The translations under genes were made by a program, and so were the position numbers. From Bacillaceae bacterium (GTDB lineage Bacteria; Bacillota; Bacilli; JACDOE01), in assembly GCA_017656255.1 (NCBI GenBank), contig JACDOE010000010.1:36400-100399 (forward strand): 64,000 nt of DNA, given 5' to 3'. Shown here piece after piece: positions 3,534 to 41,459 of this stretch. The stretch's first letter is position 1. Every line of letters starts with the position of its first letter. Below the pieces are notes generated by a model. That model saw nothing but the letters and a program-made list of their open reading frames with translations, ran no database searches and was not told the DNA's origin.

Positions 3534-3544
3534 TGTTTACTCTG

Positions 3545-3920
3545 TTATTTTCGTTCCGGATGTTTGCGGTAAAATTCATGCAGCAGCTTCATCAAGGCCC
3601 TTTTTTCAATCCGGGAGACATAGGAACGTGAAATCCCCAGCTCTCTGGCAATTTCCCGCTGCGTCTTTTCTTCTCCCGATTCAAGCCCGAACCGGCCGAT
3701 GATCACCTCCTTTTCTCTTTTATCCAGCACGTGAATGTTTTTGTAGATCTTGCTTCGTTCGATTTTGAATTCCACTTTGTCGATGACTTCGTTGGCGTCT
3801 GTTCCGAGGATATCCATCAGGCTGATTTCGTTACCTTCTTTGTCGGTGCCGATTGGATCGTGGAGGGAAACGTCTTTGCGGGTTTTTTTGAGGGAGCGCA
3901 GGTGCATGAGGATTTCATTT
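3545..3920 (-). pseudogene. sigK: sigK 3' fragment (codons 122-245 plus stop); direct repeat of 8150-8525
   Basis: 376 bp that match the 3' part of the intact sigK except for one base (3551 t versus 8156 g, a synonymous Arg codon). Homology stops abruptly at 3920|3921. There is no upstream sigK sequence. Confidence 0.9.
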
Positions 3921-8083: not shown

Positions 8084-8149
8084 AATTAACAGGGTCTGGG
8101 GTTTACACAGAAAAATTGACAGACCCTCCCCTTATTTTGACGTGTGCTT

Positions 8150-8525
8150 TTATTTGCGTTCCGGATGTTTGCGGTAAAATTCATGCAGCAGCTTCATCAA
8201 GGCCCTTTTTTCAATCCGGGAGACATAGGAACGTGAAATCCCCAGCTCTCTGGCAATTTCCCGCTGCGTCTTTTCTTCTCCCGATTCAAGCCCGAACCGG
8301 CCGATGATCACCTCCTTTTCTCTTTTATCCAGCACGTGAATGTTTTTGTAGATCTTGCTTCGTTCGATTTTGAATTCCACTTTGTCGATGACTTCGTTGG
8401 CGTCTGTTCCGAGGATATCCATCAGGCTGATTTCGTTACCTTCTTTGTCGGTGCCGATTGGATCGTGGAGGGAAACGTCTTTGCGGGTTTTTTTGAGGGA
8501 GCGCAGGTGCATGAGGATTTCATTT
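8150..8525. repeat. 376-bp direct repeat (partner at 3545-3920)
   Basis: Offset is exactly 4605 bp. I found one mismatch. Confidence 0.9.
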
Positions 8526-8887
8526 TCAATACATCTTGCTGCGTATGTGGCCAATTTGGTCCCTTTGTTTACCTTGTAACTTTCGATGGCCTTGATCAGC
8601 CCGATGGTGCCGATGGAGATCAAGTCTTCGCTGTCTTCGCCGGTGTTTTCAAATTTCTTGACGATATGCGCCACCAGGCGAAGGTTATGCTCGATCAGCA
8701 TATTCCGTGCCTCAACATCTCCCTGTTCCATCAAGCGTAAGTATTTCTCCTCGTCTTCTTCCGACAGTGGCTGGGGAAAGGCATTGTTCTTGACGTAGGA
8801 GACGAACAGAATCAGTTCTTTGTACAGAAGCGCCAGTAACCCGAGCAGTCCAGACACCCGATCCCACCTCCAGGAATAGTGCTTCAT
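8150..8887 (-). CDS. sigK: RNA polymerase sporulation sigma factor SigK (pro-sigma-K), intact copy
   Basis: 245 aa with a pro-sequence plus '[20 protein letters not shown]', '[37 protein letters not shown]' and '[24 protein letters not shown]'. Co-linear with B. subtilis SigK over its whole length. Confidence 0.93.
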
Positions 8888-8925
8888 TTATGCCTATTCC
8901 CTTCTGGGCTTGTTTGTGTCTGTAC
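8656..8925. repeat. 270-bp direct repeat (partner at 15292-15561)
   Basis: Offset is exactly 6636 bp. I found four mismatches: three are synonymous codon changes and one lies in the 5' UTR. The repeat covers codons 1-77 plus 38 bp upstream of the ATG. Confidence 0.9.
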
Positions 8926-9010
8926 TAAAAAAACTGTAATCAGTTTTATTTGCTTTTTTAAATTCTTTAAGTAAGTATCATATAACACCATAACAGACAG
9001 TAAAAGACAA

Positions 9011-9034
9011 GATCCCGGTTTGAATACCGAGATC
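9011..9034 (-). terminator. terminator after the last gene of the segment-B operon
   Basis: The minus strand reads 'GATCTCGGTattcaaACCGGGATCttgtctttt', starting 28 nt downstream of the stop at 9062. Confidence 0.55.
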
Positions 9035-9061
9035 ATCACAGTAACTTAATACATCTCTAAT

Positions 9062-9562
9062 TTAATTAACCTTCTGATCATAAAACGCAATGGCCTCATC
9101 TATTAATTTTTCAAGATGTGGTTTAAGTTCAATTGCTTTTGATTTAGCTTTGTGTGTGTCATAGCCTAAATCAATTAAAAATGCATATGTACTAACCATT
9201 TCCAAAAACTGAGAACTTTCCTTGACCATAGAATTCAAAAGATCAGTATTAATTTTTAAAGAGTATCCTCCATCAGCTTCTAAAGTTTCTTTAAATGCTT
9301 TCCCCTTCTTAGTAATAGAGTACACATAAGCTTCATCGTTTTTTGATTCAGTTAGAAATCCTTGTTGTACTAAAGTATTTATCTCTTCTTGAAGTTCTGC
9401 AGAATATGGGCCATAAAAGTGGTATTCATACTTAAATGGTAAATCTAATCCGGCTGATTCAAGCAAATGCACCATCTTTTGTACCTTTTTTCGACCGTGT
9501 ACCTTTTTAATTTCATCAAACAGACTCAATAAACTGTAGGCTCCTTCGAACAATTCAATCAC
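9062..9562 (-). CDS. YwgA / SocA(Panacea, DUF4065)-like protein
   Basis: 166 aa. 'KVQKMVHLLESAG...YHFYGPYSAELQEEINTLVQQGFL' resembles the YwgA-type partner of YwfO-type HD proteins. It overlaps the upstream HD gene by 4 nt. Confidence 0.55.
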   Translation of the reverse strand: MIELFEGAYSLLSLFDEIKKVHGRKKVQKMVHLLESAGLDLPFKYEYHFYGPYSAELQEEINTLVQQGFLTESKNDEAYVYSITKKGKAFKETLEADGGYSLKINTDLLNSMVKESSQFLEMVSTYAFLIDLGYDTHKAKSKAIELKPHLEKLIDEAIAFYDQKVN

Positions 9563-10869
9563 CCTCCAAAAATTTCATTTTTATAATCTTCGGGCATAAA
9601 GTATCTATCTATAGAGATTTTTTTATTTCTAATTCCATTAATTATATCAGAGATCACTGATAATTCTGTACCATTTCCGTTATTATCAAATAAAATTATT
9701 TGCTCTGAAGCTTCACGTTCGCCTTCTTTTTCATCCGTTTTGGGCGTATGAAAAATATAGGGATCTTTGTATGAACTACTTTTAGCTTCGTCCATTAGAA
9801 AGTAGTACTTAATTGGAATGCCTTTTTTGTTTGAATATTCGAATACCTCCTGCCAAAACTCCATAGGACTTTTGTCTGGAATGGAAACTGACTTAAAAAA
9901 CTTTCTTCTTAATAGTCGAGTACAAAGATCGCTCAATATCGAATCTTGGTGTCTACTCCATATCGAAATAAAATACCAAATCGTATTATCTGTTAAATTA
10001 ATATAATTATGTAGTGTTTCTTTAAGGTTGCCTTTTTCTGATAAAATCCGAATCAAATCTTCAGGAAATTCAATCTCCTGTTTTTCTTGAAAAATCTCAT
10101 AAGCTCTATTAAATATTTTATCTACTAGTAGTTCAGCGCTCCGAGTTGTTTTGTGAAAATACACATTCATATACATATAGTACCTTGCCATAACAAAATC
10201 TTCGGCTATACTAATACCTTTTTCAAGATCTAACCCTACCTCAATTTGACCATTATATTCACCGATTCTCAATACATTTATCATCCATTCAAGATCGAAT
10301 GAACCGTAGCCTGCACCAGTCATTTTAGAGTCTCTTAATAAATAATCAATTCTATCTGTATCTAACTGACTTGATAACAATTTCACAAGAGCTTTGGATC
10401 TATGAGTTCGTTGAATAACATCAGCAACTTCATCTGGGTCCACATTGTACTTTTTGAGAACGCTATTGATTTCTGTATCCCCACGTATTATTTCTATTGT
10501 CCACTTTTCATGTCTAACGCCAGTTGTTTTTTCTAAAGCATGGGAAAAAGGGCCATGCCCAATATCATGTAGGAGTGCTGCAGTTAATGCTAACATTCTA
10601 TTATCAGCTAGCTCTTGAGAATATTGTTTGTATTGTTCATCCTTTAAGCTACATATCTTATTAATAAATCTTTTAGTTAAATGTGTCACACCAATAGAAT
10701 GAGCAAACCGAGTATGTTCGGCTCCTGGATATGTAAATGACGATAATCCAAGTTGTTTTATATGGCGTAGTCTTTGAAATTCTTGGGTATCTATTAATTC
10801 CAAAAGCAAAGCATCTGATTCTTTATCAAAATGAATAATATTATGTACGGGATCACGAATAGTTTTCAC
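9559..10869 (-). CDS. HD-domain dNTP triphosphohydrolase-like protein (SAMHD1 / EF1143 / YwfO family)
   Basis: 436 aa with 'IRDPVHNIIHF', 'FQRLRHIKQLGLSSFTYPGAEHTRFAHSIGV', 'LLHDIGHGPFSH' and 'DTDRIDYLLRDS'. These are hallmark motifs of the family. Confidence 0.8.
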   Translation of the reverse strand: MKTIRDPVHNIIHFDKESDALLLELIDTQEFQRLRHIKQLGLSSFTYPGAEHTRFAHSIGVTHLTKRFINKICSLKDEQYKQYSQELADNRMLALTAALLHDIGHGPFSHALEKTTGVRHEKWTIEIIRGDTEINSVLKKYNVDPDEVADVIQRTHRSKALVKLLSSQLDTDRIDYLLRDSKMTGAGYGSFDLEWMINVLRIGEYNGQIEVGLDLEKGISIAEDFVMARYYMYMNVYFHKTTRSAELLVDKIFNRAYEIFQEKQEIEFPEDLIRILSEKGNLKETLHNYINLTDNTIWYFISIWSRHQDSILSDLCTRLLRRKFFKSVSIPDKSPMEFWQEVFEYSNKKGIPIKYYFLMDEAKSSSYKDPYIFHTPKTDEKEGEREASEQIILFDNNGNGTELSVISDIINGIRNKKISIDRYFMPEDYKNEIFGG

Positions 10870-10917
10870 ATTATCACCCCATTATAAAACTCTTTAATTA
10901 TTATCTAACTCGACAAA

Positions 10918-11556
10918 CTAGAATGCATTGTGTTTTCCCATTTGTCTCAGTACTTCTAATCTATCTAAACAACTTGTACATAATAAGCAATGTCGATCCC
11001 CTAAAGCATTACAAGAAAAGGTTTTTTCTATTGGTACTGACATGTTAATTGCCTCATCAATTACAATCTGTCTGTCTAAACCCACAAATGGAGTGATCAA
11101 TTCAAATTCATGAAGTGATTCTGAAAGAGTAGTAGATATGCTCTCTATAAATGACTTACTTGTATCCTTATAAGATCTTGACCCAGTCACACCTATTGCT
11201 ATTTTTCGTATATCGTTTTTATACGCATATGCTCCAGCCAAAGATATTAAAATCATATTTCTGTTCGGAAAAAACTCGGTATTAAACCATTCTTCTGCTG
11301 AATATCCTGATTGAGGACTATCCCCCACAAGTGATCCAGAGCCAAGGTGCTTCATATTAGAAATGTCTAAAAATAAGACTTTATCCGCATACTCATTTCC
11401 TATTATTGATTTAATTGCTCTAATTTCGCCAGACACTGTTACTTGCCCATAGTTAATATGAATAGGGAATATATCGTATTTTCTTTTTCGCAACCAATAA
11501 TAAAGAACAACAGAATCAATGCCCCCTGATAATAATAATACGACTTTTTTTCTCAT
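10918..11556 (-). CDS. QueC-like PP-loop ATPase (7-cyano-7-deazaguanine synthase family, divergent)
   Basis: 212 aa with the 'LLLSGGIDS' PP-loop, 'INYGQ', 'FFPNRNMILISLAG' and a C-terminal Cys cluster 'SCNALGDRHCLLCTSCLDR'. Co-linear with QueC. Its start overlaps the upstream stop (ATGA). Confidence 0.75.
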   Translation of the reverse strand: MRKKVVLLLSGGIDSVVLYYWLRKRKYDIFPIHINYGQVTVSGEIRAIKSIIGNEYADKVLFLDISNMKHLGSGSLVGDSPQSGYSAEEWFNTEFFPNRNMILISLAGAYAYKNDIRKIAIGVTGSRSYKDTSKSFIESISTTLSESLHEFELITPFVGLDRQIVIDEAINMSVPIEKTFSCNALGDRHCLLCTSCLDRLEVLRQMGKHNAF

Positions 11557-12818
11557 AATATATACAACTTCTCTATTAATTCTTCAATAGATTCAACTAT
11601 AACATTACAACCATAAACTAGCATATTATTTAATTCAAACTGTGAGGTTTTTAAAGCAATTATAGGGATACCTCTTTCATAAGCAAACCCAACTTCAAAA
11701 CATGTACCCGGATCATTATGATCTAACAATGCTACCACAACATCAGATTGTCTTATCAAGTCAAGATCTTTATCAAAAATATTTTTGCGTTCATCCATTG
11801 GTGTGTCTTTCTTTATAATTCCATTTTCTCGTAGAGGTGATAAAACTTTAAATCCACAATTTTCTATTCTATTCGTTATTAATTTAACCCAATCCTCTTC
11901 CTGTTTACTAAAAAATGGACCTGCCAAGTAAACGCTTTTGTCTGAATTACCAGATACAACAATTTCTCTTCTGTCCATATCTTCTTCTACCGCTACTCTA
12001 TTTATTATATTTTCAATTGTAAAATTCTCAATGAAGTTAGCAGCAACACAACTTGCTAACCTCGTACTATACTCAATATCCCTCGTCCTGAGAAATGTAG
12101 CAGCTAATGCACCACCAAAAACATCACCAGAGCCTAAAGTGCATTTAACATTACTTTTATACGCCGGTATATGTATAGTCTTTCCTTCGTTTACTAGAAT
12201 ACAACCTTTATATCCTCTTTTTACGATTATGTACTTAGGCCCCATATGAATTAACTTTTCAATAGCATTCTCTAAAGTATTTGCTTGAGTTAATAATAAA
12301 ACCTCTTCCTCATTTACTAAAAGTACAGATACATATTCTAAAATTTTTCTAGCATCATGAATTGATTTGCTATTTGGTTTTGGGTCAAGAAAAACAGGAA
12401 TATTTTTTTCACATGCTTGCTTACATAAATCTTCCGGAAGCGAGTGATCCACTGGAAATACTAAGATACCCTCACATTCATCACTTAGCTGTGGATTATA
12501 TTCAATACCGATTTTAACATCTATCAAAGGAGTACTTTTTTTAACTTCATAAGCTTTATAACCTTTTACTAAATATTTTGGCAGACAATAATTTTCCATA
12601 TATTTAGCACTCGAAAAACTTACACCCATTAAGTTCCATATTTTTATACTATATGAATCGATTTCGGGCCCGTATACTGTCATAAACTCAACATTGATGC
12701 CTTGTTTTGCTGCAGATATTGATGCATATAAACCGGCTCCCCCAAATCTATCGATAATCTTTGTATCATAATCTAATAATAAGTCAATACCTATCTCTCC
12801 GTATACAGCAATATTCAT
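11553..12818 (-). CDS. fusion protein: PfkB-family sugar/nucleoside kinase + nucleoside 2-deoxyribosyltransferase-like domain
   Basis: The N-terminal part has 'GGAGLYASISAAKQG' and 'TLGSGDVFGGALAA' (PfkB signatures). The C-terminal part has 'VYLAGPFFS' and 'DPGTCFEVGFAYERGIPIIAL' (NDT/DNPH1-type motifs). I chose the start at 12818 (MNIAVYG...) because it sits 5 nt after GTGAGGTGA. Confidence 0.75.
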   Translation of the reverse strand: MNIAVYGEIGIDLLLDYDTKIIDRFGGAGLYASISAAKQGINVEFMTVYGPEIDSYSIKIWNLMGVSFSSAKYMENYCLPKYLVKGYKAYEVKKSTPLIDVKIGIEYNPQLSDECEGILVFPVDHSLPEDLCKQACEKNIPVFLDPKPNSKSIHDARKILEYVSVLLVNEEEVLLLTQANTLENAIEKLIHMGPKYIIVKRGYKGCILVNEGKTIHIPAYKSNVKCTLGSGDVFGGALAATFLRTRDIEYSTRLASCVAANFIENFTIENIINRVAVEEDMDRREIVVSGNSDKSVYLAGPFFSKQEEDWVKLITNRIENCGFKVLSPLRENGIIKKDTPMDERKNIFDKDLDLIRQSDVVVALLDHNDPGTCFEVGFAYERGIPIIALKTSQFELNNMLVYGCNVIVESIEELIEKLYIL

Positions 12819-12823
12819 CGGTA

Positions 12824-13534
12824 TCACCTCACGAATTGAAAGTATCCGTTTCTCCCTAATATCCATAATAAATAGTCCATCTTACCTAAAGGCACTCCAA
12901 TCTTCAAGCAAATAATTCGTAATGCTTCTTCATATTGTAAGTAAACCTTTTCTGTTATGTTTTTAGGAATATTATATCCTAAGTAACCAAGAAATCTTAG
13001 TATATGGATATCCAGTACTGCACAATCATTATTAAATCCTGTATTCCTTAATAGCCAACTAGCTGATTTCATGCCAATACCTGGACATTCACATAGCCAT
13101 GTTCTAGCATCAAATGAATTAAGTTCATTAAGTTTATCAAATAATCTCCAGTGACAGTTCTCCCAAAGCCAATATCCAGCCTTGGATATAACCTTAGGCT
13201 TCGTTTCCACAAATCTATATTTTCTGAACTGGCCGTTACAAGTAATGGGATAAAACTGCTTTTTTGATAACTCTCTCTTTATTACATTTTCAATTATATA
13301 TAAGTTAGATATAGAGGAATAATATTTTGCTTCGATTAACCCTTTATTCTTTAATACATGTAAACCTGATTTGTTTAACTCATAACTGATTCCAAATCCT
13401 CCAAGAACTACGAAAAAAAATTCATCTATAACTTGTTCATTAGATTTTGAAACAAACGAAAACTCTCTTTCAATTGCAATACCATAAGTTTCCCAAAGTT
13501 CTTTTAACACATTGAATGCTCTAGTATTTTCCAT
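12824..13534 (-). CDS. Ogg2/AGOG-like HhH-GPD DNA glycosylase (N-glycosylase/DNA lyase type)
   Basis: 236 aa. 'CPGIGMKSASWLLRNTGFNNDCAVLDIHILRFL' shows a helix-hairpin-helix with the Lys and downstream Asp arrangement of bifunctional Ogg2-type enzymes. Confidence 0.65.
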   Translation of the reverse strand: MENTRAFNVLKELWETYGIAIEREFSFVSKSNEQVIDEFFFVVLGGFGISYELNKSGLHVLKNKGLIEAKYYSSISNLYIIENVIKRELSKKQFYPITCNGQFRKYRFVETKPKVISKAGYWLWENCHWRLFDKLNELNSFDARTWLCECPGIGMKSASWLLRNTGFNNDCAVLDIHILRFLGYLGYNIPKNITEKVYLQYEEALRIICLKIGVPLGKMDYLLWILGRNGYFQFVR

Positions 13535-13540
13535 ATCACT

Positions 13541-13891
13541 TTACGCCTCTACCTCTACTGTAACCTTCGGGTCATGTTGATTCCCTTCTTTTTTTATTAC
13601 AACCCCCTTGTATTCCCACCCTTCTTCAATACATTTTAAGAGCCAACTGTATTTTGGAGGAACGACCCCTATACTAAAATTATCTTTTTCTTTTTTTACT
13701 TCCATGACCGGCAATGTATCATCATTTCTTAAGATAATAGACACTTCATCATTCACAGAAACATTTCTCCACACTGCTTTTTGATTCTCATTAACAATTA
13801 ATAAAATTGTAACTTTTTCACCGCATCTATTTACTGTTTTTCCAGTTCCTCCTCCAAAACCACCAAATGATGAAAAGCCACCACTTCCCAT
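13541..13891 (-). CDS. small protein with Gly/Phe/Ser-rich N-terminus and beta-rich body (possibly HIRAN-like); first gene of the operon
   Basis: 116 aa beginning 'MGSGGFSSFGGFGGGTGK'. Strong AAGGAGGA RBS. Its stop lies 6 nt before the next start. No family was recognised with confidence. Confidence 0.55.
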   Translation of the reverse strand: MGSGGFSSFGGFGGGTGKTVNRCGEKVTILLIVNENQKAVWRNVSVNDEVSIILRNDDTLPVMEVKKEKDNFSIGVVPPKYSWLLKCIEEGWEYKGVVIKKEGNQHDPKVTVEVEA

Positions 13892-14024
13892 ATAAATCCT
13901 CCTTACTAGTTATTTTTTTTTTTGCAATCTTTATAATACTCCAAAACTATTTATATTTAAATTAAATGAAATCTCATTTTGATCACTTCTTTTGTAAATT
14001 GTCTAATGTGCTTAGAATATGTTA

Positions 14025-14860
14025 TTATTTCTCTAGACCAAATTCTCTTTTTAATTTATTAAAGTCATATTCTTTTATTTCGATTGGGATACTAAGGTTC
14101 TTAAGTTTTGACATCAAATCGCTTTTATTAACAACAGGTTTGTCCTCGTAAACAATTGCGAATATCAATTTAAAATTATTTATTGAAGCACTGTCTAAAT
14201 TTTTAGCTGTCTGATATAACGATTCAATAACATTACGAGTTAACTTACCTCGTTTATTATATTTTATCTCAAATCCATAAGTTGAATTATCAGTTTTACT
14301 AATACCATCAATTTCAATTAACTTATCAGAAGATTTAAATGCCATGTGTCTCTGAATAGGAATTTTAAATTCTTGTTCAAGTTTCCTAAACACCAAATCT
14401 TCAGCTAAAAAGTATTGCATTTTGGGATCAACAGTCACTTTGGAAGGCATGTCTAACGTACCCGCTTTATCCTCTTCAATATTATTATCACTAGAAGATT
14501 CTTCAAGCTCTGCTTCTGCTTTCTTTCTTTGTGAATCACTAGTTAATTTTAAGAAATTCCCTTCATCCTTAAAATCACTTGGCGCATATAATTTGGTATG
14601 ATAAAAATCACAAGTCTATAAAATGTAAATAAAACAAGTAAAGGGAAAATTACTATGAAACACACAAGGAACCATTTTTGAGAAACATTTAATTCCGAAC
14701 TAAATTGAAGTACTAATGCTGCTATTCCATAAATTAGTGATATAAATAATGCAATGATACCTAAGGGGTTCTTTGTAAAACCTGATGCACTTCTCGTGAA
14801 TTCTATTATTATCGCTCACCTTCCTTGTAAAAATTTTAAAATGATGCCAACGTTACTCAT
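14025..14860 (-). pseudogene. disrupted membrane-anchored PD-(D/E)xK-like protein
   Basis: The ATG at 14860 begins 'MSNVGIILKFLQGR'. An in-frame TGA follows at 14816-14818. Two hydrophobic helices come next, then a frame change at a T-run near 14600-14610. After that the frame runs into the 141-aa ORF 14025-14450, which has 'IEIDGIS...YGFEIKY'. Confidence 0.5.
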
Positions 14861-15283
14861 TCTTAATACCAATCCAAATCATATCCGTGGACAAAAATGG
14901 CTGGAAAATATAAAACATGTCTGAGTATCAAAAAATTAATCTTTTAATATAACATTCTTCTCTTTTTTCTCATTAACTCCTCCTAGCTTTTGTGCACACC
15001 AATATATTAAAAAACAATCTTCAAAACTATACTTACTCCTTTTAGATCAAAGATCAAAAAATCCCTAACAAAAAAATTAGTGTTTATTCTCAATTGTATT
15101 TCGGTAAAAAAACAGATAATCCCTTTTAGGACAAATAAAAAATAATTAGTAAGGATATCACTCTATACTATATACTTATCTGAATTAATAGGTTTAATTG
15201 GTTTTATAATTATCTTCTTTTAGCTATTTGAAACCCCCCCTGACCCAGCACCACACCAGCATTCTTCCGACATCGCTTCGTGT

Positions 15284-15523
15284 TCACAACCTCTTGACGA
15301 TATGCGCCACCAGGCGAAGGTTATGTTCGATCAGCATATTTCGCGCCTCAACATCTCCCTGTTCCATCAAGCGTAAGTATTTCTCCTCGTCTTCTTCCGA
15401 CAGTGGCTGGGGAAAGGCATTGTTCTTGACGTAGGAGACGAACAGAATCAGTTCTTTGTACAGAAGCGCCAGTAACCCGAGCAGTCCAGACACCCGATCC
15501 CACCTCCAGGAATAGTGCTTCAT
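15284..15523 (-). pseudogene. sigK: sigK 5' fragment (codons 1-77, then 'RL' and a stop)
   Basis: The 79-aa ORF matches intact SigK through '...[10 protein letters not shown]'. Homology ends at 15292. Confidence 0.9.
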
Positions 15524-15561
15524 TTATGCCTATTCCCTTTTGGGCTTGTTTGTGTCTGTAC
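15292..15561. repeat. 270-bp direct repeat (partner at 8656-8925)
   Basis: See the feature at 8656-8925. Confidence 0.9.
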
Positions 15562-15669
15562 CGGAGATTTGTTTTTGCTCTTTTGTTAAAAACTGTTTAA
15601 GCATTTTTAACACTAGCGTTCTCAAATAAATTTAATGTTTCTGTCCTTCACTTCTTTTTTCTACAAGTA

Positions 15670-15710
15670 AACAAACATCCCGCAATACCTTAATAGTAAT
15701 GCGGGATATT
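15670..15710 (-). terminator. terminator of the Hen1-Pnkp operon
   Basis: 'ATCCCGCA-15 nt loop-TGCGGGAT', followed on the minus strand by 'gtttgttt'. Confidence 0.5.
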
Positions 15711-15742
15711 ATGAGAACCTTTTAGACATACCCTTCTTTACC

Positions 15743-18346
15743 TTATAACCTCGGGTCAATTTCTTTCTCTTTACTTACTTCAAATAGCATGTTAGCAACC
15801 ACCTGTTTATATTTATGATCTGACTCATTTATTTTATCTAAATGAAAGGCCAACATCTCTTTCCCAAGTTTGAATTCATTGATAGAGGTTTTTAGTTTCT
15901 TTGAAATATTTTTTTGCTTTAAAAGCTTGGCATATTTGTGTGGAAAGCGATAATCATATCCATAAACAATGGTTAAATAATCTGGATTGCGAACTTTCAT
16001 ATAAGGGGCAGTATCATCTGCCAATTTTTCAGGTTTAATCACGACACCTTCCATTTTTCTTTCTGTTGTCAAAGTCTTAAAAAAGGTTAAAGCTTTTTCA
16101 TAATAATCCTGTTCGTTTAAATCGATCAACATAAATTCATCATCAGATACAAACTTAAAAATTTCCGATGTTGATTCTGCAGGGATGATCTCTTCTCCAT
16201 TTTCCTTGACCATTTTTAAAATATTAAATGGTTTATAGTTAATCTCATCATCCTTTGCATAGAGCTCGATTTGTTCATGATATTTTTGATGGGCTTCCAC
16301 ATGTTTTTCTATTGGTTCATATGACTTTAACATAGTTTGCAACGCCTTATAAGTCTGGTAAGTGGCACCGCCAAACTTTTTAATCAAATCTTTCTTAGAC
16401 ATTGTTTGCTGATCGACTTCATAGTCACTTGATTTATATTGCTCAACAAGTTTTTGAAAGTGGGCATCAAAGCCTTGCTCCTTTAAAAAATCCAACTCTG
16501 TTTGTAAAGCTCTGTCTATAGTCCTAAATTGCTTTTCAATCAATTCCTCTCCCAAAATAGACCAGGGCAGTAATTCACCATCAAACACGATTGTTTTTAT
16601 TTTATTCTCTTTCATGTAATCCGAAAATTTATTTAACAGATTATCATATACCGGAGACAAATCCACTTTCTTAATTTTAAATCCATTTCGACTCACTGCA
16701 TAACATTGATCTAGTTCCCTTGCTAAGTAAATGTTACATCTTGACCCCATGTACTTCGGTTGCAAAACCACTTTATGGACGCCTTTTCTCTTAAAATACA
16801 ACAACCCCTGTTTTAAAGATTCCAATTCATTGCTATCCAAATCTTTGTCAGCCGGCGACATGGTACCAGAAATATAATTAATCTTATTTTTCAAGACATA
16901 ATTAAGGCGCTTTTGGTCCTGTTCATGTAAATCCTCGATGTTAACATGTTTATCTCTTTGTTTAAATAAAGTAGGTAAAGGTTCGTTCCAGTATTTACTA
17001 GTGCTTGTAATTCGCTGCTGTTTAAAAAACGGTCTCCAGGAGTCAATCACAACAGAAGAAAGAACATTTCCATTGGCAGCTCCCGTATCAATGTTAATCT
17101 TATTTTTAATTTGGACTATTTCTTTTACAGCAACATGTCCAAAAATATGATACGGATGATTTCCAACACTCTCTGACTCCAGAAAGTGCAATTGCTCCTC
17201 GTAGGGTTTTTCTCGATCAAGAACAAAGCTTCTTTGCTTTTTCAGAGACGTTTTATCTAACTTCCCTATATATTTGTTTTGACACGGAGCATGTGTCACA
17301 TAAAAGGAAGGCTTTTGTAATCCAATATACCTGTAGAATTCTTTCGAAGATTCAACGAGTCGGAAAAATTTGTGTTTTAAATCCTCATCCTTTTCAAAGA
17401 TTTCTATAGAGTCAAAGTAGTTGTCTAGTAAACTTGAATCTACTGAATTCTTATCAATTTCACCTTTCAAGTATTTGTAAACAAAATTCTCATGATTTCC
17501 TTTTACAAGCACAAAATGATCCATATTTTGTTCAATAAATTCTACCGTCTCTTTGGTAGCATTTCCTTTGTCAATCCAGTCTCCGTTAAGAATAATTTTA
17601 TATTCATCCGTTTTTTCAGTGGATAAAATACGATTATTTTCAATATTAAACCCATAGCTGATAAGCAGCTTTTTTAAATCAGCCACTTTTTCATGAACAT
17701 CTCCAACAATTATATATTTGTGTTCCTGCGGCAAAATATGACTGAGATAATGATCTAAATCCTCTATCATAATTTTATAATTTGCATTCGGTTCATTGGT
17801 ATCAGGGTTATAGAAATCCCGCTCCCTAATTTTGTGTATTCGACGAAATTTTGACTTTGAAATTTGTTTCAGAACCTCTCTTTTGAGACGAGTGACATGA
17901 TTTGAAATTAATCGTCTTGAACCACCTGAAGCATAGAAATCTTCTCTATTTTTAAAATCAAAAAGTATAGCTTCCAGGTTATATTGCTTTTCTTTAGCAA
18001 TTTCCATGATTTGCTCACGGAATTCTTCTGAAAGGCCAATTGTATCAACAATGACGAACTCGGCGTTAATTGGAAATGACGTAACGGCTTTTAGTTTCTC
18101 AAATAAAATATGAAAGGCTTGTTCGCTGCTTTCCATCATAATTCTGTCATGTTTGTCATATTCATGTCCCAAAATATCCTGCCTGATTTCATCAGAGGAA
18201 ATATATTGAACATTGGTTTTAAAGCCCCGATCCTTATCCTGAATAGAAAGTTGAGGCAACAATATTTCTTTAGCAAATGTTGATTTACCGGAATTAGTAG
18301 CACCAATTAACATAAATATGGTATGCATATTTGTTTTTAATTCCAT
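15743..18346 (-). CDS. pnkp: bacterial polynucleotide kinase-phosphatase (Pnkp): kinase + metallophosphoesterase + ligase/adenylyltransferase domains
   Basis: 867 aa. Contains an N-terminal P-loop 'IGATNSGKSTFA', central 'IIVGDVHE...GDWIDKG...GNHE' phosphoesterase motifs, and a C-terminal 'QPKYMGSRCNIY' ligase-like lysine motif. Confidence 0.85.
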   Translation of the reverse strand: MELKTNMHTIFMLIGATNSGKSTFAKEILLPQLSIQDKDRGFKTNVQYISSDEIRQDILGHEYDKHDRIMMESSEQAFHILFEKLKAVTSFPINAEFVIVDTIGLSEEFREQIMEIAKEKQYNLEAILFDFKNREDFYASGGSRRLISNHVTRLKREVLKQISKSKFRRIHKIRERDFYNPDTNEPNANYKIMIEDLDHYLSHILPQEHKYIIVGDVHEKVADLKKLLISYGFNIENNRILSTEKTDEYKIILNGDWIDKGNATKETVEFIEQNMDHFVLVKGNHENFVYKYLKGEIDKNSVDSSLLDNYFDSIEIFEKDEDLKHKFFRLVESSKEFYRYIGLQKPSFYVTHAPCQNKYIGKLDKTSLKKQRSFVLDREKPYEEQLHFLESESVGNHPYHIFGHVAVKEIVQIKNKINIDTGAANGNVLSSVVIDSWRPFFKQQRITSTSKYWNEPLPTLFKQRDKHVNIEDLHEQDQKRLNYVLKNKINYISGTMSPADKDLDSNELESLKQGLLYFKRKGVHKVVLQPKYMGSRCNIYLARELDQCYAVSRNGFKIKKVDLSPVYDNLLNKFSDYMKENKIKTIVFDGELLPWSILGEELIEKQFRTIDRALQTELDFLKEQGFDAHFQKLVEQYKSSDYEVDQQTMSKKDLIKKFGGATYQTYKALQTMLKSYEPIEKHVEAHQKYHEQIELYAKDDEINYKPFNILKMVKENGEEIIPAESTSEIFKFVSDDEFMLIDLNEQDYYEKALTFFKTLTTERKMEGVVIKPEKLADDTAPYMKVRNPDYLTIVYGYDYRFPHKYAKLLKQKNISKKLKTSINEFKLGKEMLAFHLDKINESDHKYKQVVANMLFEVSKEKEIDPRL

Positions 18347-19618
18347 TTACTTTTCACCTCTTGCTTTAACCAAAACTCCCTGAGTGGTATAAACCCCGTC
18401 TACACAATCGCCAATACTTAAATGATGAATCTCAAAATCTCGTTCATCAAAAATCTCACTTATCCATTGTTTAAATTCATTTGTCCCCATTTCCCATTTA
18501 TGATCTTCATGCCGATATTCATCCAGGGAATAATACTTATTAAAATCATGATTTGGAGTCGTTATAATAATGGATTCAAAATGAATGTCATCAAGAATTG
18601 TTAAAATTAGTTTTTTAGCCTCATCCTTCTCCATGTGTTCAATGACTTCTGTAAGGATGACATCAACTAATTCCCCATTGTAATCTTCAATAAAATCCTC
18701 AATGGATCCATAAGTTAATATATTTTCAATACCCCTTTTTTTAATTCTTGCATCCAGCGAACGAATGATATCTTCATCAATGTCAATGGCATAATAGTAT
18801 TTGTCACCTATACTTTCGGAGAAAAGAAAGGCATAATAACCTTCCCCACATCCAACATCAACAATTGGTTTGTTGAAGGGTAATAACTTTTTTATCGCTT
18901 CTCTTCTTTGGTGAGCTGTATGTCCGTAAGAAAAGTTTATGTCATACCTTTGTGTTTCTTCCAGGCTTTCTTTAAATTTTGAAAATAATTTCCTGCTGGT
19001 AAGTATGTTTCGTGCAAACAGATACCTTATAAAAAACGGAGCATCCAGGACTTTAATTTGATTAACATACTTTTCAATCAAACTATCTGTAACATCAAGG
19101 TATTCGTTACCTATTAAAGATAAAAATAAAAACAATAGATTAGCTGTATTCAATAAATCATAAATACTTTTGTTCGTTTTGATTTTAATTGAATAGCTCT
19201 TGTGAGATTGATGAATCATTTCGATAGAGAAATCCTCAAAATGTTTGCTAAAAAAATCTATATATCTTGGTAGTGTGATATGAACCATATTCACAAATAA
19301 TTCATTTTCATATCCTTCAAGATCATTATCATACCGGTTTTTGATTGTGGAATTAAAGAATTCTGTCATTGCGTTTAATGGAAAAAGAGGTGTATTATAT
19401 CTTGAAACATTTAGATATTCAAAGCTTTCTTCTTTATGTTGCTTGTAAGATATCTCGTTGTCAGCGTCCTTAAAATATATATTGTAGGTTTGATCATCAG
19501 AATACCAGCCAAACGCAATTCCCTGTCTGACTGTACGCAACATCATGCCTGAAGCTGGATTTTTGCGTATTAAAAAAGAAAAGTGCGGATTCGTTGATTT
19601 TAACTGAACAATAGCCAT
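18347..19618 (-). CDS. hen1: Hen1 3'-terminal RNA ribose 2'-O-methyltransferase
   Basis: 423 aa. The N-terminal 'FSFLIRKNPASGMMLRTVRQGIAFGWY' is Hen1-type, and the C-terminal SAM motif is 'IVDVGCGEGYY'. The stop codon abuts the pnkp start codon. Confidence 0.8.
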   Translation of the reverse strand: MAIVQLKSTNPHFSFLIRKNPASGMMLRTVRQGIAFGWYSDDQTYNIYFKDADNEISYKQHKEESFEYLNVSRYNTPLFPLNAMTEFFNSTIKNRYDNDLEGYENELFVNMVHITLPRYIDFFSKHFEDFSIEMIHQSHKSYSIKIKTNKSIYDLLNTANLLFLFLSLIGNEYLDVTDSLIEKYVNQIKVLDAPFFIRYLFARNILTSRKLFSKFKESLEETQRYDINFSYGHTAHQRREAIKKLLPFNKPIVDVGCGEGYYAFLFSESIGDKYYYAIDIDEDIIRSLDARIKKRGIENILTYGSIEDFIEDYNGELVDVILTEVIEHMEKDEAKKLILTILDDIHFESIIITTPNHDFNKYYSLDEYRHEDHKWEMGTNEFKQWISEIFDERDFEIHHLSIGDCVDGVYTTQGVLVKARGEK

Positions 19619-19773: not shown

Positions 19774-21105
19774 TCATGCTTTTGAAGATATACAACACAA
19801 CATAAAGAGACCAATTATGAATCCATATAAGATTAAAATCCAGTAGCATAAACTTAACACATACTTTCTTTTGATTCGTCGTCTCATCTGAATCCAATAT
19901 TCAATTATAGAGGCTTTAAGTAATATTCGGACATAAAAAAATTGATATATCATAACTAGCAATATAATCCCCGCTGTCATTATTGTCGCAAGTAACAACT
20001 TGAACCAAAAAGAAACAGTTTGAATATCAATCATCATAATAAATAGTAATATGCTGCCCCCTGTTCCTAATGCAATCAGTAACAGCATAGATAAAGAAGC
20101 AATAATTCTTTTAGATAGGGAAATATGGTCAATATTTAACGTTTCCTCCAAAACTTCTTTGTTCTCCTCATGATTTTTTAGTTCGTCAAGATTTTCAATA
20201 CCTCTTAAATCAAAAAAGTCTCTAAACTTATCTAAAAACCACTTAGCTATATCATGTGCATCTTTTTCAAGTTCTTCAGAACGAAGAGATAATTGGATAT
20301 ACTTTTCATCTTTATCTGTCGTGTCTTCAATAACACCTTTAACTCCCTCTCCCCTTCTATCAATCTGGATATACATAAGTAATTGATCCTCTTTAATTTG
20401 AAAAATTATCTGAATTTCATCCATCTTATCCCATAGAATTTCCTTTATCGGTTTAAAATCGTATATAAACATAAAAGGTTTCTCATCACTATAGGTATAA
20501 AAAGAGTTGAAATTCATTCTCATATTATCAATAGACACATGGGATTCTGTTTTTAAATTCTTTTTATATCCTTGCCAATTTTTAAACTGATACAAAATGT
20601 AAGATAATGAAAAACCAAGTTCTTTCTGAAGAGCTTCAATTACTTTTTGTACCCATGGATGAGGGAAAACATTAATTTCGTTATATTCCTTCCAATTTGG
20701 CCACTTGTCAAGGGAGCATATCGTGTCAATCGATATATGAAAGAATCCTTTAGAAACCAAATCCTTATCTCCATTTTCTGATTCTTTTACATTGTGAACG
20801 GCAATAGGGGTATCATAGGGAACCTGAAAAGAAAAGGAAAATTCTAATTTTTCACCAATTTCAATTTTACGTTCTTTTGCAATCGTAGTTTTTAACAGTG
20901 GGACACGAGAATATATTAAGTCGTCACGGGTATCCATTTTTGTTGTAATCTGAATGACTAATTCCTTAATTATTCTTTCCTGTATTCCTCCCTGAACTAT
21001 TACTTTGCCCGATACTTGTTCACCGGGGCGGTAATAATTTTTATCCAGAATAGTCTTGATTGCTATATCTCCATGTCTTAGCCTCCAAAGCTTTTTTCTT
21101 AACAT
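19774..21105 (-). CDS. Spo0M-like (arrestin-fold) protein with C-terminal multi-pass membrane region
   Basis: The N-terminus 'ILDKNYYRPGEQVSGKVIVQGGIQERIIKELVIQI...FSFQVPYDTPIAV' resembles Spo0M. The last 120 aa or so contain 3-4 hydrophobic helices. Confidence 0.6.
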   Translation of the reverse strand: MLRKKLWRLRHGDIAIKTILDKNYYRPGEQVSGKVIVQGGIQERIIKELVIQITTKMDTRDDLIYSRVPLLKTTIAKERKIEIGEKLEFSFSFQVPYDTPIAVHNVKESENGDKDLVSKGFFHISIDTICSLDKWPNWKEYNEINVFPHPWVQKVIEALQKELGFSLSYILYQFKNWQGYKKNLKTESHVSIDNMRMNFNSFYTYSDEKPFMFIYDFKPIKEILWDKMDEIQIIFQIKEDQLLMYIQIDRRGEGVKGVIEDTTDKDEKYIQLSLRSEELEKDAHDIAKWFLDKFRDFFDLRGIENLDELKNHEENKEVLEETLNIDHISLSKRIIASLSMLLLIALGTGGSILLFIMMIDIQTVSFWFKLLLATIMTAGIILLVMIYQFFYVRILLKASIIEYWIQMRRRIKRKYVLSLCYWILILYGFIIGLFMLCCISSKA

Positions 21106-36900: not shown

Positions 36901-37140
36901 AAAAAAGCAACAGCGGAGGGTTTCCGTTGTTGCTTTAGAAACAATACCGGATCGTTTCCTTAGCGTGAGATAGCCCTCCATATAGCAACAAGACTATATG
37001 ACAGTTCTGCACTTATTCAGTGCAAAACCAGCTGCAGGAATCATGAGCTTCCCGAAGCTTCGGCAAATCCCCCTTTCCACAACCTTCACCGGAGCTCATT
37101 CTCCTCTGATTGTGTACTGATGGTCTTTGCGCCTCTATCC
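36901..37140 (-). ncRNA. lysine riboswitch (L-box) with terminator, leader of dapA
   Basis: The minus strand reads 'GATAGAGGCGC...GAGCTCCGGTGAAGG...GCCGAAGC...CTGG...GAACTGTCA...TGGAGGGCTATC'. The terminator 'AGCAACAACGGaaaccctCCGCTGTTGCTTTTTT' follows at 36901-36936. Confidence 0.85.
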
Positions 37141-37186
37141 TCACTCCATATATATTACTGAAGCAGGAAATATTGAATTTTCCTGT

Positions 37187-39074: not shown

Positions 39075-39235
39075 ATAAAAAGACTATTTCAACCATATGA
39101 AATAGCCTCCGTTACCTGTAGATGCACGTTCCCTGAAGCTGGTTCTCTCTTCGGTAACCCGGCATCTGTTCGATCTGATTTCAGACACCTGGGCTTTGCG
39201 CCCCCATCTCTCAATGAGTTTGCCGTTTCGGAGTT
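39075..39235 (-). ncRNA. c-di-GMP-I (GEMM-I) riboswitch with terminator, leader of MCP gene 1
   Basis: The minus strand reads 'GGCAAACTCATTGAGAGATGGGGGCGCAAAGCC...CCGGGTTACCGAAG', with a GNRA-capped P1a and the GCGCAAAGCC core. A hairpin 'CTATTTCAtatggTTGAAATAG' plus a T-run follows at 39083-39105. Confidence 0.8.
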
Positions 39236-41254: not shown

Positions 41255-41410
41255 TATAAAAAGGCTATTTCAACCCGTTGAAATAGCCTTCGTTACCTGC
41301 TGTTGATGACTCTTGATGAGGATTTCTCACGGTAACCCGGCATCTTTCATCTACTTCACAGACACCAGGGCTTTGCGCCCCCATCTTTCGATGAGTTTGC
41401 CTTTTCTAAA
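41255..41410 (-). ncRNA. c-di-GMP-I (GEMM-I) riboswitch with terminator, leader of MCP gene 2
   Basis: The minus strand reads 'GGCAAACTCATCGAAAGATGGGGGCGCAAAGCC...CCGGGTTACCGTGAG'. The hairpin 'GGCTATTTCAacgggTTGAAATAGCC' plus a T-run follows. A compensatory change occurs in P1a relative to copy 1. Confidence 0.8.
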
Positions 41411-41459
41411 TCCTGTTGAAACGACATATCGTAAGATATTCCCGATTCATTTATACTAA

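Follow-up and report, generated by a model that had tools for sequence, protein, structure and literature searches.

What six tightly spaced minus-strand genes for nucleobase and nucleotide enzymes might do together, and whether all six belong to one system, is the question raised by an operon on contig JACDOE010000010.1 of a Bacillaceae bacterium; the whole 64,000-nucleotide stretch of that contig analyzed here is referred to as the window. The original prediction held that the gene set matched no known system, and profile searches against PADLOC and NCBIfam agreed, since no described defense system covered the six genes. The answer that we favor, with moderate confidence, is that the core of the operon is a four-gene protein-nucleobase conjugation cassette, most likely antiphage in function, which is joined here to an independent deoxynucleoside triphosphate triphosphohydrolase (dNTPase) module. 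By analogy with type IV CBASS (cyclic oligonucleotide-based antiphage signaling system), the probable role of a QueC-like enzyme is to link a 7-deazaguanine base to the N-terminal glycine of a small protein of a DNA-end-binding type, and the locus looks like an uncharacterized relative of two recently solved antiphage systems, type IV CBASS and QatABCD.

The QueC-like enzyme and a candidate protein acceptor

The QueC-like gene (positions 10918 to 11556, minus strand) encodes a 212-amino-acid PP-loop protein, a predicted ATP-dependent ligase, which matched Pfam QueC (PF06508; E = 2e-37) and scored 112.9 bits against TIGR00364, the NCBIfam QueC equivalog, below the cutoff of 150.3. Its best sequence match in the PDB was Cap9 of type IV CBASS, in complex with NDG-modified CdnD (9nto_B; 1.7e-11), and Foldseek likewise placed this chain first for the predicted model, with Bacillus subtilis QueC narrowly behind. 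In type IV CBASS, Cap9 with ATP joins 7-carboxy-7-deazaguanine to Gly2 of the CD-NTase (cGAS/DncV-like nucleotidyltransferase), and its NDG contacts are Y115, D117, and R86 (Wassarman et al. 2025, 10.1101/2025.04.06.647259). The counterparts of these residues in the QueC-like protein are Y129, D131, and R99, of which D131 and R99 were invariant and residue 129 was Tyr in more than 90% of 24 aligned family members. The positions conserved in the family comprised S10-G-G-x-D14-S15, R99/N100, Y129/D131, and C182/C190/C193/C196, and the family motifs were Y-x-D-T and C-N-(x)6-C-xx-C-xx-C-x-D, not the YPDC and C(x)8CxxCxxC of canonical QueC. Like Cap9, the enzyme is a putative QueC-family ligase of minimal size with a PP-loop, a Zn-Cys cluster, and Tyr/Asp/Arg base contacts; unlike QatC, which has about 400 residues, N- and C-terminal extensions, and Thr for the base-contact Tyr/Asp, it has no extensions and keeps Y129 and D131. 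An unbootstrapped, midpoint-rooted neighbor-joining tree, to which we give little weight, grouped Cap9 with the QueCs of the cassette, apart from canonical QueC. QueD and QueE were found beside no cassette among the loci that were searched with QueD/QueE queries or had Pfam or record annotation listed, in keeping with their absence from the operon as originally noted, whereas canonical QueC loci (L003, L005, and L017) do carry QueD/QueE.

The first gene of the operon (13541 to 13891, minus strand) encodes a 116-amino-acid Gly-rich protein that the original prediction had treated as a bystander, but whose start carries a Cap9-type acceptor motif and whose body has a predicted HIRAN fold. In an AlphaFold2 model, residues 1 to 20 form a disordered tail, MGSGGFSSFGGFGGGTGK, with predicted local distance difference test values below 50 at residues 7 to 19; residues 21 to 116 form the HIRAN-fold domain, in which the values exceed 90, and this body matched the HIRAN beta-barrel fold. 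The N terminus, MGSGGFSSFGGFGGG (MGSGGFSSFGG), matches the M(G/S)G(G/S)GG acceptor motif with which all type IV CBASS CD-NTases start, the modified peptide there being GGSGGSFGSGFDPR (Wassarman et al. 2025, 10.1101/2025.04.06.647259). Relatives of the small protein were difficult to retrieve: a word-indexed search returned only the query, and exhaustive phmmer was needed to recover a family of 27 real representatives, the large matches P0074 and P0101 being discarded as tandem-repeat junk. A start of the form M[GS][GSA], with a Gly/Ser-rich stretch after it, was present in 23 of 26 aligned sequences (that of the window and those of 25 representatives from clustering at 50%) and in all 19 copies of the protein at the surveyed loci described below; where the longest open reading frame (ORF) began further upstream, an internal MG(G/S) start was present.

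None of the 26 aligned small proteins matched a Pfam family, even at E ≤ 10, and the protein had no detectable sequence similarity to the HIRAN domains of HLTF, Rad5, or bacterial lp_0118 (PDB 3k2y), from which it also differs in that the domain stands by itself, carries a Gly-rich acceptor tail, and has two conserved cysteines. In HLTF and Rad5, the HIRAN domain binds the 3' ends of DNA. The pairing of a QueC-family enzyme with a partner that has a flexible MG-type tail recalls the QatB-QatC core, also small and with no obvious effector, in which the essential MGTS tail of QatB inserts into QatC and a G2D mutant is inactive (Gao, Wassarman & Kranzusch 2026, PMC13279940). The partner differs from the helical QatB in its beta-rich HIRAN fold. 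By analogy with these systems, we predict that the QueC-like ligase uses Gly2 of the small protein as its acceptor. Because of the acceptor motif and the HIRAN-fold body, the likeliest substrate of the ligase is a protein N terminus rather than a nucleotide pool or DNA, contrary to the pool-depletion and base-swap hypotheses first advanced for this operon.

To follow the cassette beyond the window, 19 nonredundant loci with adequate flanks were surveyed; a metagenome scan with a trimmed alignment yielded 10 loci, so the survey rests on 19 and not on hundreds, and in a genome-contig scan that used the full QueC alignment, matches to the generic PP-loop pattern dominated and one close locus was recovered. 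The small protein, a fusion of a PfkB-type kinase with a nucleoside deoxyribosyltransferase (NDT) domain, and the QueC-like protein occurred together in all 19 loci, with a gene for an OGG-like N-glycosylase within a few kilobases in 15, so that the set does recur outside this genome. Identity of the QueC-like proteins to that of the window ranged between about 77% and roughly one-quarter, and the loci came from Bacillota, Alpha- and Gammaproteobacteria, Planctomycetota, and Halorubrum, in the last on a megaplasmid. The QueC-like protein nevertheless had only 71 homologues in 5.8 billion clusters, and phage genomes that were searched contained no cassette, only an isolated NDT-domain match. 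Gene order was small protein-OGG-fusion-QueC in Bacillota and OGG-small protein-fusion-QueC in Rubripirellula, Acetobacteraceae, Methylocystis, Citrobacter, and an unclassified metagenome contig (L016), often with a nitroreductase-like gene next. A nitroreductase/SagB-like "dehydrogenase" gene lay directly 3' of the QueC-like gene in L004 (10578 to 11255), L016 (8606 to 9472), L038 (7255 to 7929), and L040 (6219 to 6953). On a Bacillus cereus plasmid (L037, NZ_CP042875; 4974 to 7296), a 118-residue HIRAN-like protein starting MGSTGTG is followed by a single 658-residue PfkB::NDT::QueC protein, with a NUDIX gene upstream and no OGG gene nearby. The Halorubrum lacusprofundi plasmid pHLAC01 (L039; 3379 to 6264) carries instead of a small protein one of 362 residues, which starts MGGGSGG and has an acidic linker of about 190 residues and two tandem HIRAN-like domains; the PfkB::NDT and QueC genes come next, and TIR-domain genes adjoin.

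The neighbors of the related cassettes were mostly defense genes, in line with the defense-island company that had been proposed for the window. They included Wadjet and a TerB/BrxC-like set; PemK, SAVED, and NB-ARC; and type III-like restriction-modification, HEPN_AbiV, and Bub genes; a Citrobacter plasmid cassette was accompanied by a Gabija-like OLD ATPase with a helicase and by an antiphage dGTPase. In Bacillus sp. V59.32b (L001), an SLFN-group-3 helicase and a MazG-like gene lay upstream of the cassette.

The transferase-kinase fusion, the glycosylase, and a proposed route

The second enzyme of the core, the PfkB::NDT fusion (11553 to 12818, minus strand), has 421 residues from the ATG at 12818 and 437 from an in-frame ATG at 12866; homologue comparison favored the former start (MNIAVYGEIG), and its residue numbers below refer to the 437-residue form. 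The two domains matched PF00294 (PfkB; 7e-24) and PF05014 (Nuc_deoxyrib_tr; 2e-21), and the GxGD motif of the kinase (G245, G247, D248) and the NDT residues D382..G387..F390-E391-G393 were invariant across five orthologues that were 24 to 61% identical to the window protein. The closest solved relatives were ribokinases and true NDTs (1vm7, 7m5h, and 6evs). The original prediction had called the second domain NDT/DNPH1-like. Its NDT half held, and a DNPH1/Rcl-type hydrolase was rejected on the solved-chain matches, in which the NDT domain was matched at E ≤ 1e-3 by only three short chains, two of them named (deoxy)ribosyltransferases and one unnamed. NDTs are base-exchange enzymes that work through a covalent glycosyl-enzyme intermediate and are mechanistically parallel to tRNA-guanine transglycosylases (TGTs). 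The fusion differs from the TGT-type Cap10 of type IV CBASS in that an NDT, with its Glu nucleophile and deoxynucleoside substrates, is joined to a ribokinase-type kinase, and Pfam detected no TGT domain in the operon.

The OGG-like gene (12824 to 13534, minus strand) encodes a 236-residue Ogg2-type HhH-GPD N-glycosylase/lyase. The protein matched Ogg-HhH (PF22175; 4e-21) and Ogg2 in the PDB (9o00; 9e-15) and keeps the catalytic Lys (K156, mutated in entries 9o01 and 9o02) and Asp (D175), so that the catalytic residues of the kinase, NDT, and OGG domains were all conserved. The family assignments first made from the sequence (OGG, PfkB plus NDT, QueC, and HD) were in fact each confirmed by profile searches. 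The OGG-like enzyme is the counterpart of Cap11, for which glycosidic-bond reversal or a regulatory role has been proposed (Wassarman et al. 2025, 10.1101/2025.04.06.647259), although the relationship is distant (30% identity over 76 residues to Cap11 of the type IV CBASS locus L029). That locus and two others from soil metagenomes (L029 to L031) were found by chance and served as comparators; they carry a Cap9-like QueC, a TGT-like Cap10, a CD-NTase, a transmembrane effector, and, on the other strand, a Cap11 OGG, and the longest ORF of their CD-NTase does not start with MG but contains an internal MCGTSGGG start.

Compared with type IV CBASS, the cassette likewise has a partner protein whose M(G/S)G(G/S)G... 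tail is disordered, an OGG-family gene, and a base-exchange enzyme in the operon, but its target would be a HIRAN-fold protein of about 115 residues and not a CD-NTase. Neither a CD-NTase nor a cyclic-nucleotide effector domain was found in any of the six proteins by Pfam or PADLOC, and these searches gave no match to QatA (KAP NTPase) or QatD (TatD) in the operon; the absence of CD-NTase, TGT, and QatA/B/D had been noted correctly from the start. The best reading of the core is a third architecture of QueC-family N-terminal-glycine conjugation, with an NDT-kinase in the position of Cap10 and a HIRAN protein in that of the CD-NTase or QatB. The elements that we rate as new are the conjugation target and the transglycosylase-kinase partner.

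The proposed route would begin with methionine aminopeptidase, whose processing of N-terminal Met is established and which would expose Gly2 of the 116-residue protein. The QueC-like enzyme, as Cap9 does, would then adenylate, at the expense of ATP, the carboxylate of 7-carboxy-7-deazaguanine supplied by the host and form an amide with the Gly2 amine, a step to which the acceptor motif, the synteny, and the conserved base-contact residues point. In Cap10's place, the NDT domain may transfer 2'-deoxyribose to N9, which the tethered base keeps free, and the fused ribokinase-type domain may phosphorylate the 5'-OH, in either order. The product would be a protein with a 7-deaza-dGMP-like nucleotide at its N terminus. 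More speculatively, the Ogg2-type glycosylase could recleave the N-glycosidic bond, either on the free conjugate or once it is in DNA, as a reset or regulator, and the HIRAN-fold body could bring the conjugate to DNA 3'-OH ends, for example those of replicating or packaged phage DNA. Where an HD dNTPase is present, it would release deoxynucleosides, which are NDT donors. The full version of this scheme, in which a protein-tethered deoxynucleotide, reversible by OGG, reaches or is built into the 3' ends of DNA and thereby blocks phage replication while neighboring dNTPases supply the donors, is put forward tentatively and is, as a whole, rather unlikely.

Protein deazaguanylation was discovered only in 2025, and the fate of the tethered base's free N9, together with the final target, is its central question, described as unsolved in the studies of type IV CBASS (Wassarman et al. 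2025, 10.1101/2025.04.06.647259) and QatABCD (Gao, Wassarman & Kranzusch 2026, PMC13279940). The cassette offers a simpler test of it: in place of a TGT-like enzyme with an unknown substrate it has an NDT, whose 2'-deoxyribose base exchange is well understood, and this NDT is fused to a 5'-kinase and on one plasmid also to the QueC-like ligase, while the target has only 116 residues. Successive mass shifts of +176 Da (base), +116 Da (deoxyribose), and +80 Da (phosphate) are predicted. If the conjugation reading is true, a published "purine salvage" cluster would be reread as a probable immune system, a HIRAN-fold protein would join the targets of deazaguanylation, and the module would reach Archaea. 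Were a protein-tethered nucleotide indeed formed, a chemistry downstream of N-terminal deazaguanylation would be defined for the first time, and protein and nucleic acid would be linked in a new way.

Several observations weigh against the conjugation reading. The QueC-like enzyme by itself does not separate a ligase from a nitrile synthase, since canonical QueC is nearly equal to Cap9 as a match (2.8e-10 versus 1.7e-11 by sequence; 1.3e-12 versus 1.1e-12 by Foldseek), and a distant branch of the family has His for the base-contact Tyr and an altered Cys motif. The HIRAN assignment comes from the predicted model of a protein that no sequence family matches. Of the 19 loci, 4 are without OGG, and in the distant branch a nitroreductase-like gene takes its place or stands with it, so the chemistry may differ between branches. 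The core has no recognizable toxic effector. The defense-island context is suggestive but no proof, and the neighbors at one locus (L032) were unremarkable. Finally, both the conjugation and the defense roles are predictions from sequences and models.

The HD/YwgA-like pair and other readings of the operon

The last two genes of the operon encode a predicted EF1143/SAMHD1-type HD dNTP triphosphohydrolase (9559 to 10869, minus strand; 436 residues) and a YwgA-like protein (9062 to 9562, minus strand; 166 residues). The HD protein contains HD (PF01966) and HD_assoc_2 (PF19276) and resembles EF1143 over its full length (PDB 2o6i; 1e-77 over residues 2 to 429) and SAMHD1 over the HD core (about 1e-22), from which its activity is predicted; it scored far below the cutoffs of the NCBIfam antiphage dGTPases. 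The YwgA-like protein gave weak PADLOC matches to DarG, in the C-terminal region only (8e-11), and to PDC-M19A and LmuC, a weak match to DUF4364, and no solved relative in a PDB search. Of its initial description as YwgA/SocA-like we retain only the YwgA part; a SocA/DUF4065 identity was rejected, as Pfam gave no such match.

The HD protein was always accompanied by a YwgA-like partner of 160 to 166 residues, and the two genes stood together in L022/L032, L033, L034, and L036. The pair followed a cassette only in the window, L022/L032, L023, and L033, and it occurred without one in Thermobacillus composti and Desulfitobacterium hafniense (L034 and L036), the latter having its cassette at another locus. 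Conversely, 16 of the 19 cassette loci lacked the pair, the close relatives L001 and L024 among them. Homologues of the HD protein numbered at least 8000, versus the 71 of the QueC-like protein. Since the pair occurs alone and belongs to a family of at least 8000 members, it is an autonomous module, and the unit in the window is a four-gene core cassette plus an autonomous HD/YwgA-like accessory module. This did not bear out the original description of a single six-gene system. In the window lineage the pair is adjacent to the cassette and probably cotranscribed with it.

A stronger form of the six-gene view would be that all six genes form a single, obligate system, with the HD dNTPase as an effector that the YwgA-like protein restrains and the conjugation cassette controls. 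No terminator lies between the QueC-like and HD genes, which are 48 nt apart, and L022/L032 and L033 retain the order of all six genes at 48 to 84% protein identity, with L023 retaining part of it. Dissimilar HD-type dNTPases also recur about 1 to 2 kb from the cassette in other lineages, namely, a 437-residue HD protein on a Methylocystis plasmid (L040; 1557 to 2870), with E = 1.5e-20 to the HD protein of the window, and one annotated as antiphage dGTPase on the Citrobacter plasmid (L038; 9809 to 11173), so that three different kinds, including that of the window lineage, were seen near a cassette. Such enzymes could make the deoxynucleosides that an NDT needs; plain clustering in defense islands accounts equally simply for their recurrence. 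Against an obligate system stand the solitary pairs of L034 and L036, a family at least 100 times larger than that of the cassette, the cassettes that lack the pair even in close relatives, and the separate loci of D. hafniense. We regard an obligate six-gene system as a real but minority possibility.

A reading in terms of small molecules has already been published for the pairing at the heart of the cassette. In a sequence similarity network of QueC proteins, "Cluster 4" comprises about 266 mainly proteobacterial sequences with the motif CH(x)5CxxCxGCxK; a PF00294-PF05014 fusion occurs in 89% of its neighborhoods and a nitroreductase in about 20% of its operons, and the authors took the cluster to serve purine salvage (Libby et al. 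2026, PMC13329287 / PMC13082051). The combination of fusion and QueC-like enzyme is thus not unprecedented, which revises the original prediction. Apart from that study, we found no relevant literature on QueC and PfkB::NDT together with HIRAN, a kinase, or a glycosylase, although most subscription journals lay outside the search. The cassette agrees with Cluster 4 in the adjacency of a QueC paralogue to the PfkB-NDT fusion and in the nitroreductase of L004, L016, L038, and L040, and the Cluster 4 signature itself was found in distant cassette relatives (P0070/L016, L004, and L006). It departs from Cluster 4 in that the window enzyme belongs to a Bacillota branch and has CN(x)6CxxCxxCxD, the Cap9 pattern, and in that neither a small MG-tailed protein nor an OGG is mentioned for the cluster.

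Applied to the window, salvage or biosynthesis of purines or deazapurines would have the QueC-like enzyme make or amidate a free 7-deazapurine, the NDT convert it to a deoxynucleoside, and the PfkB domain produce the nucleotide, with the OGG and the small protein peripheral. That such a reading is in print counts against protein conjugation. Moreover, each enzyme has a counterpart acting on free nucleobases or nucleosides, the closest solved relatives being ribokinases, true NDTs, and QueC, and a route from base to nucleoside to nucleotide is chemically economical. Salvage nevertheless leaves without explanation a protein with no Pfam match and a Cap9-type acceptor start in all 19 loci, where it is usually translationally coupled to the enzymes. 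Libby et al. left both this protein and the OGG out of consideration, as their table contained no usable Pfam signal for either one. The cassette is also without FolE, QueD, and QueE, unlike the canonical loci, and its rarity, its patchy spread across phyla, its location on plasmids and islands, and its mostly defense-related neighbors do not form a housekeeping pattern. Salvage or biosynthesis is an improbable account of the cassette.

Least probable of all is 7-deazaguanine modification or restriction at the level of DNA, with the NDT and QueC-like enzymes supplying a modified deoxynucleotide for host DNA or the OGG excising deazaguanine or oxidized bases from invading DNA and HIRAN as DNA-end sensor; the HIRAN fold match with the 3'-end binding of its HLTF and Rad5 namesakes, the Lys/Asp pair of a DNA glycosylase/AP lyase in the OGG-like enzyme, the DpdA-like genes of L001, and the dNTPases near cassettes in three lineages speak for it, but the window and most loci have no DpdA/TGT, the conserved Gly N terminus is given no role, the QueC-like enzyme is without partners for de novo preQ0, and the reading overlaps protein conjugation in that a protein conjugate could itself end up in DNA. 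The L001 genes are two TGT-family (DpdA-like) genes 2 kb downstream of the cassette (12691 to 16696), one of whose products is fused to DUF6884, and they may be either a separate deazaguanine-DNA system or a functional partner.

Operon layout and genomic island

The arrangement of six minus-strand genes, with their spacings, ribosome-binding site, and terminator, was confirmed as first described from the list of ORFs and by direct reading of the sequence. All six have homologues in conserved synteny elsewhere and are therefore real genes and not chance ORFs. A Shine-Dalgarno sequence, AAGGAGGA, was read at 13897 to 13904 (minus strand), 5 nt upstream of the ATG of the small-protein gene. That gene is separated from the OGG gene by 6 nt, and the OGG gene from the fusion by 5 nt if the latter starts at ATG 12818; the fusion and QueC-like genes overlap by 4 nt, as do the HD and YwgA-like genes. 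The operon ends at a terminator-like hairpin with a T-run (9011 to 9034, minus strand), which was the sole terminator-like site on the minus strand between 8850 and 14150.

The operon lies in an island of 6.4 kb (8926 to 15291) with a GC content of 0.30 to 0.33 (about 0.32), versus about 0.46 in the adjacent sigK. Insertion into a disrupted sporulation gene, as originally suggested, was ruled out, since the sigK ORF (8887 to 8150) is intact. Instead, a duplicated 5' fragment of sigK (15292 to 15561; 270 nt), a direct repeat 99% identical to 8656 to 8925, forms the upstream edge of the island. A partial 3' copy of sigK (3542 to 3841; 300 nt) is 99% identical to 8147 to 8446, so that sigK is flanked by copies of its 3' and 5' ends, with an AT-rich island between the gene and each copy. 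These copies could reflect two gene-restoring integrations or the remnants of a skin-like element; the interval from 8926 to 15291 contained no integrase or recombinase ORF of at least 100 amino acids.

Upstream of the operon, a 141-residue ORF (14025 to 14450, minus strand) had no match in Pfam, PADLOC, or NCBIfam, and the roughly 800 nt between it and the sigK fragment (14450 to 15290) were apparently noncoding or decayed. The predicted Pnkp/Hen1 RNA-repair neighbor was upheld by Pfam: the Pnkp (kinase-phosphatase-ligase) and Hen1 pair and, following it, a gene for a Spo0M-like protein were noted at 15743 to 19618 and 19774 to 21105 on the minus strand, all three within the same AT-rich stretch. 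No tRNA genes were found in the window as a whole, and Rfam matches above gathering thresholds were a lysine riboswitch (36963 to 37145) and two c-di-GMP-I riboswitches (39150 to 39234 and 41328 to 41411), all on the minus strand.

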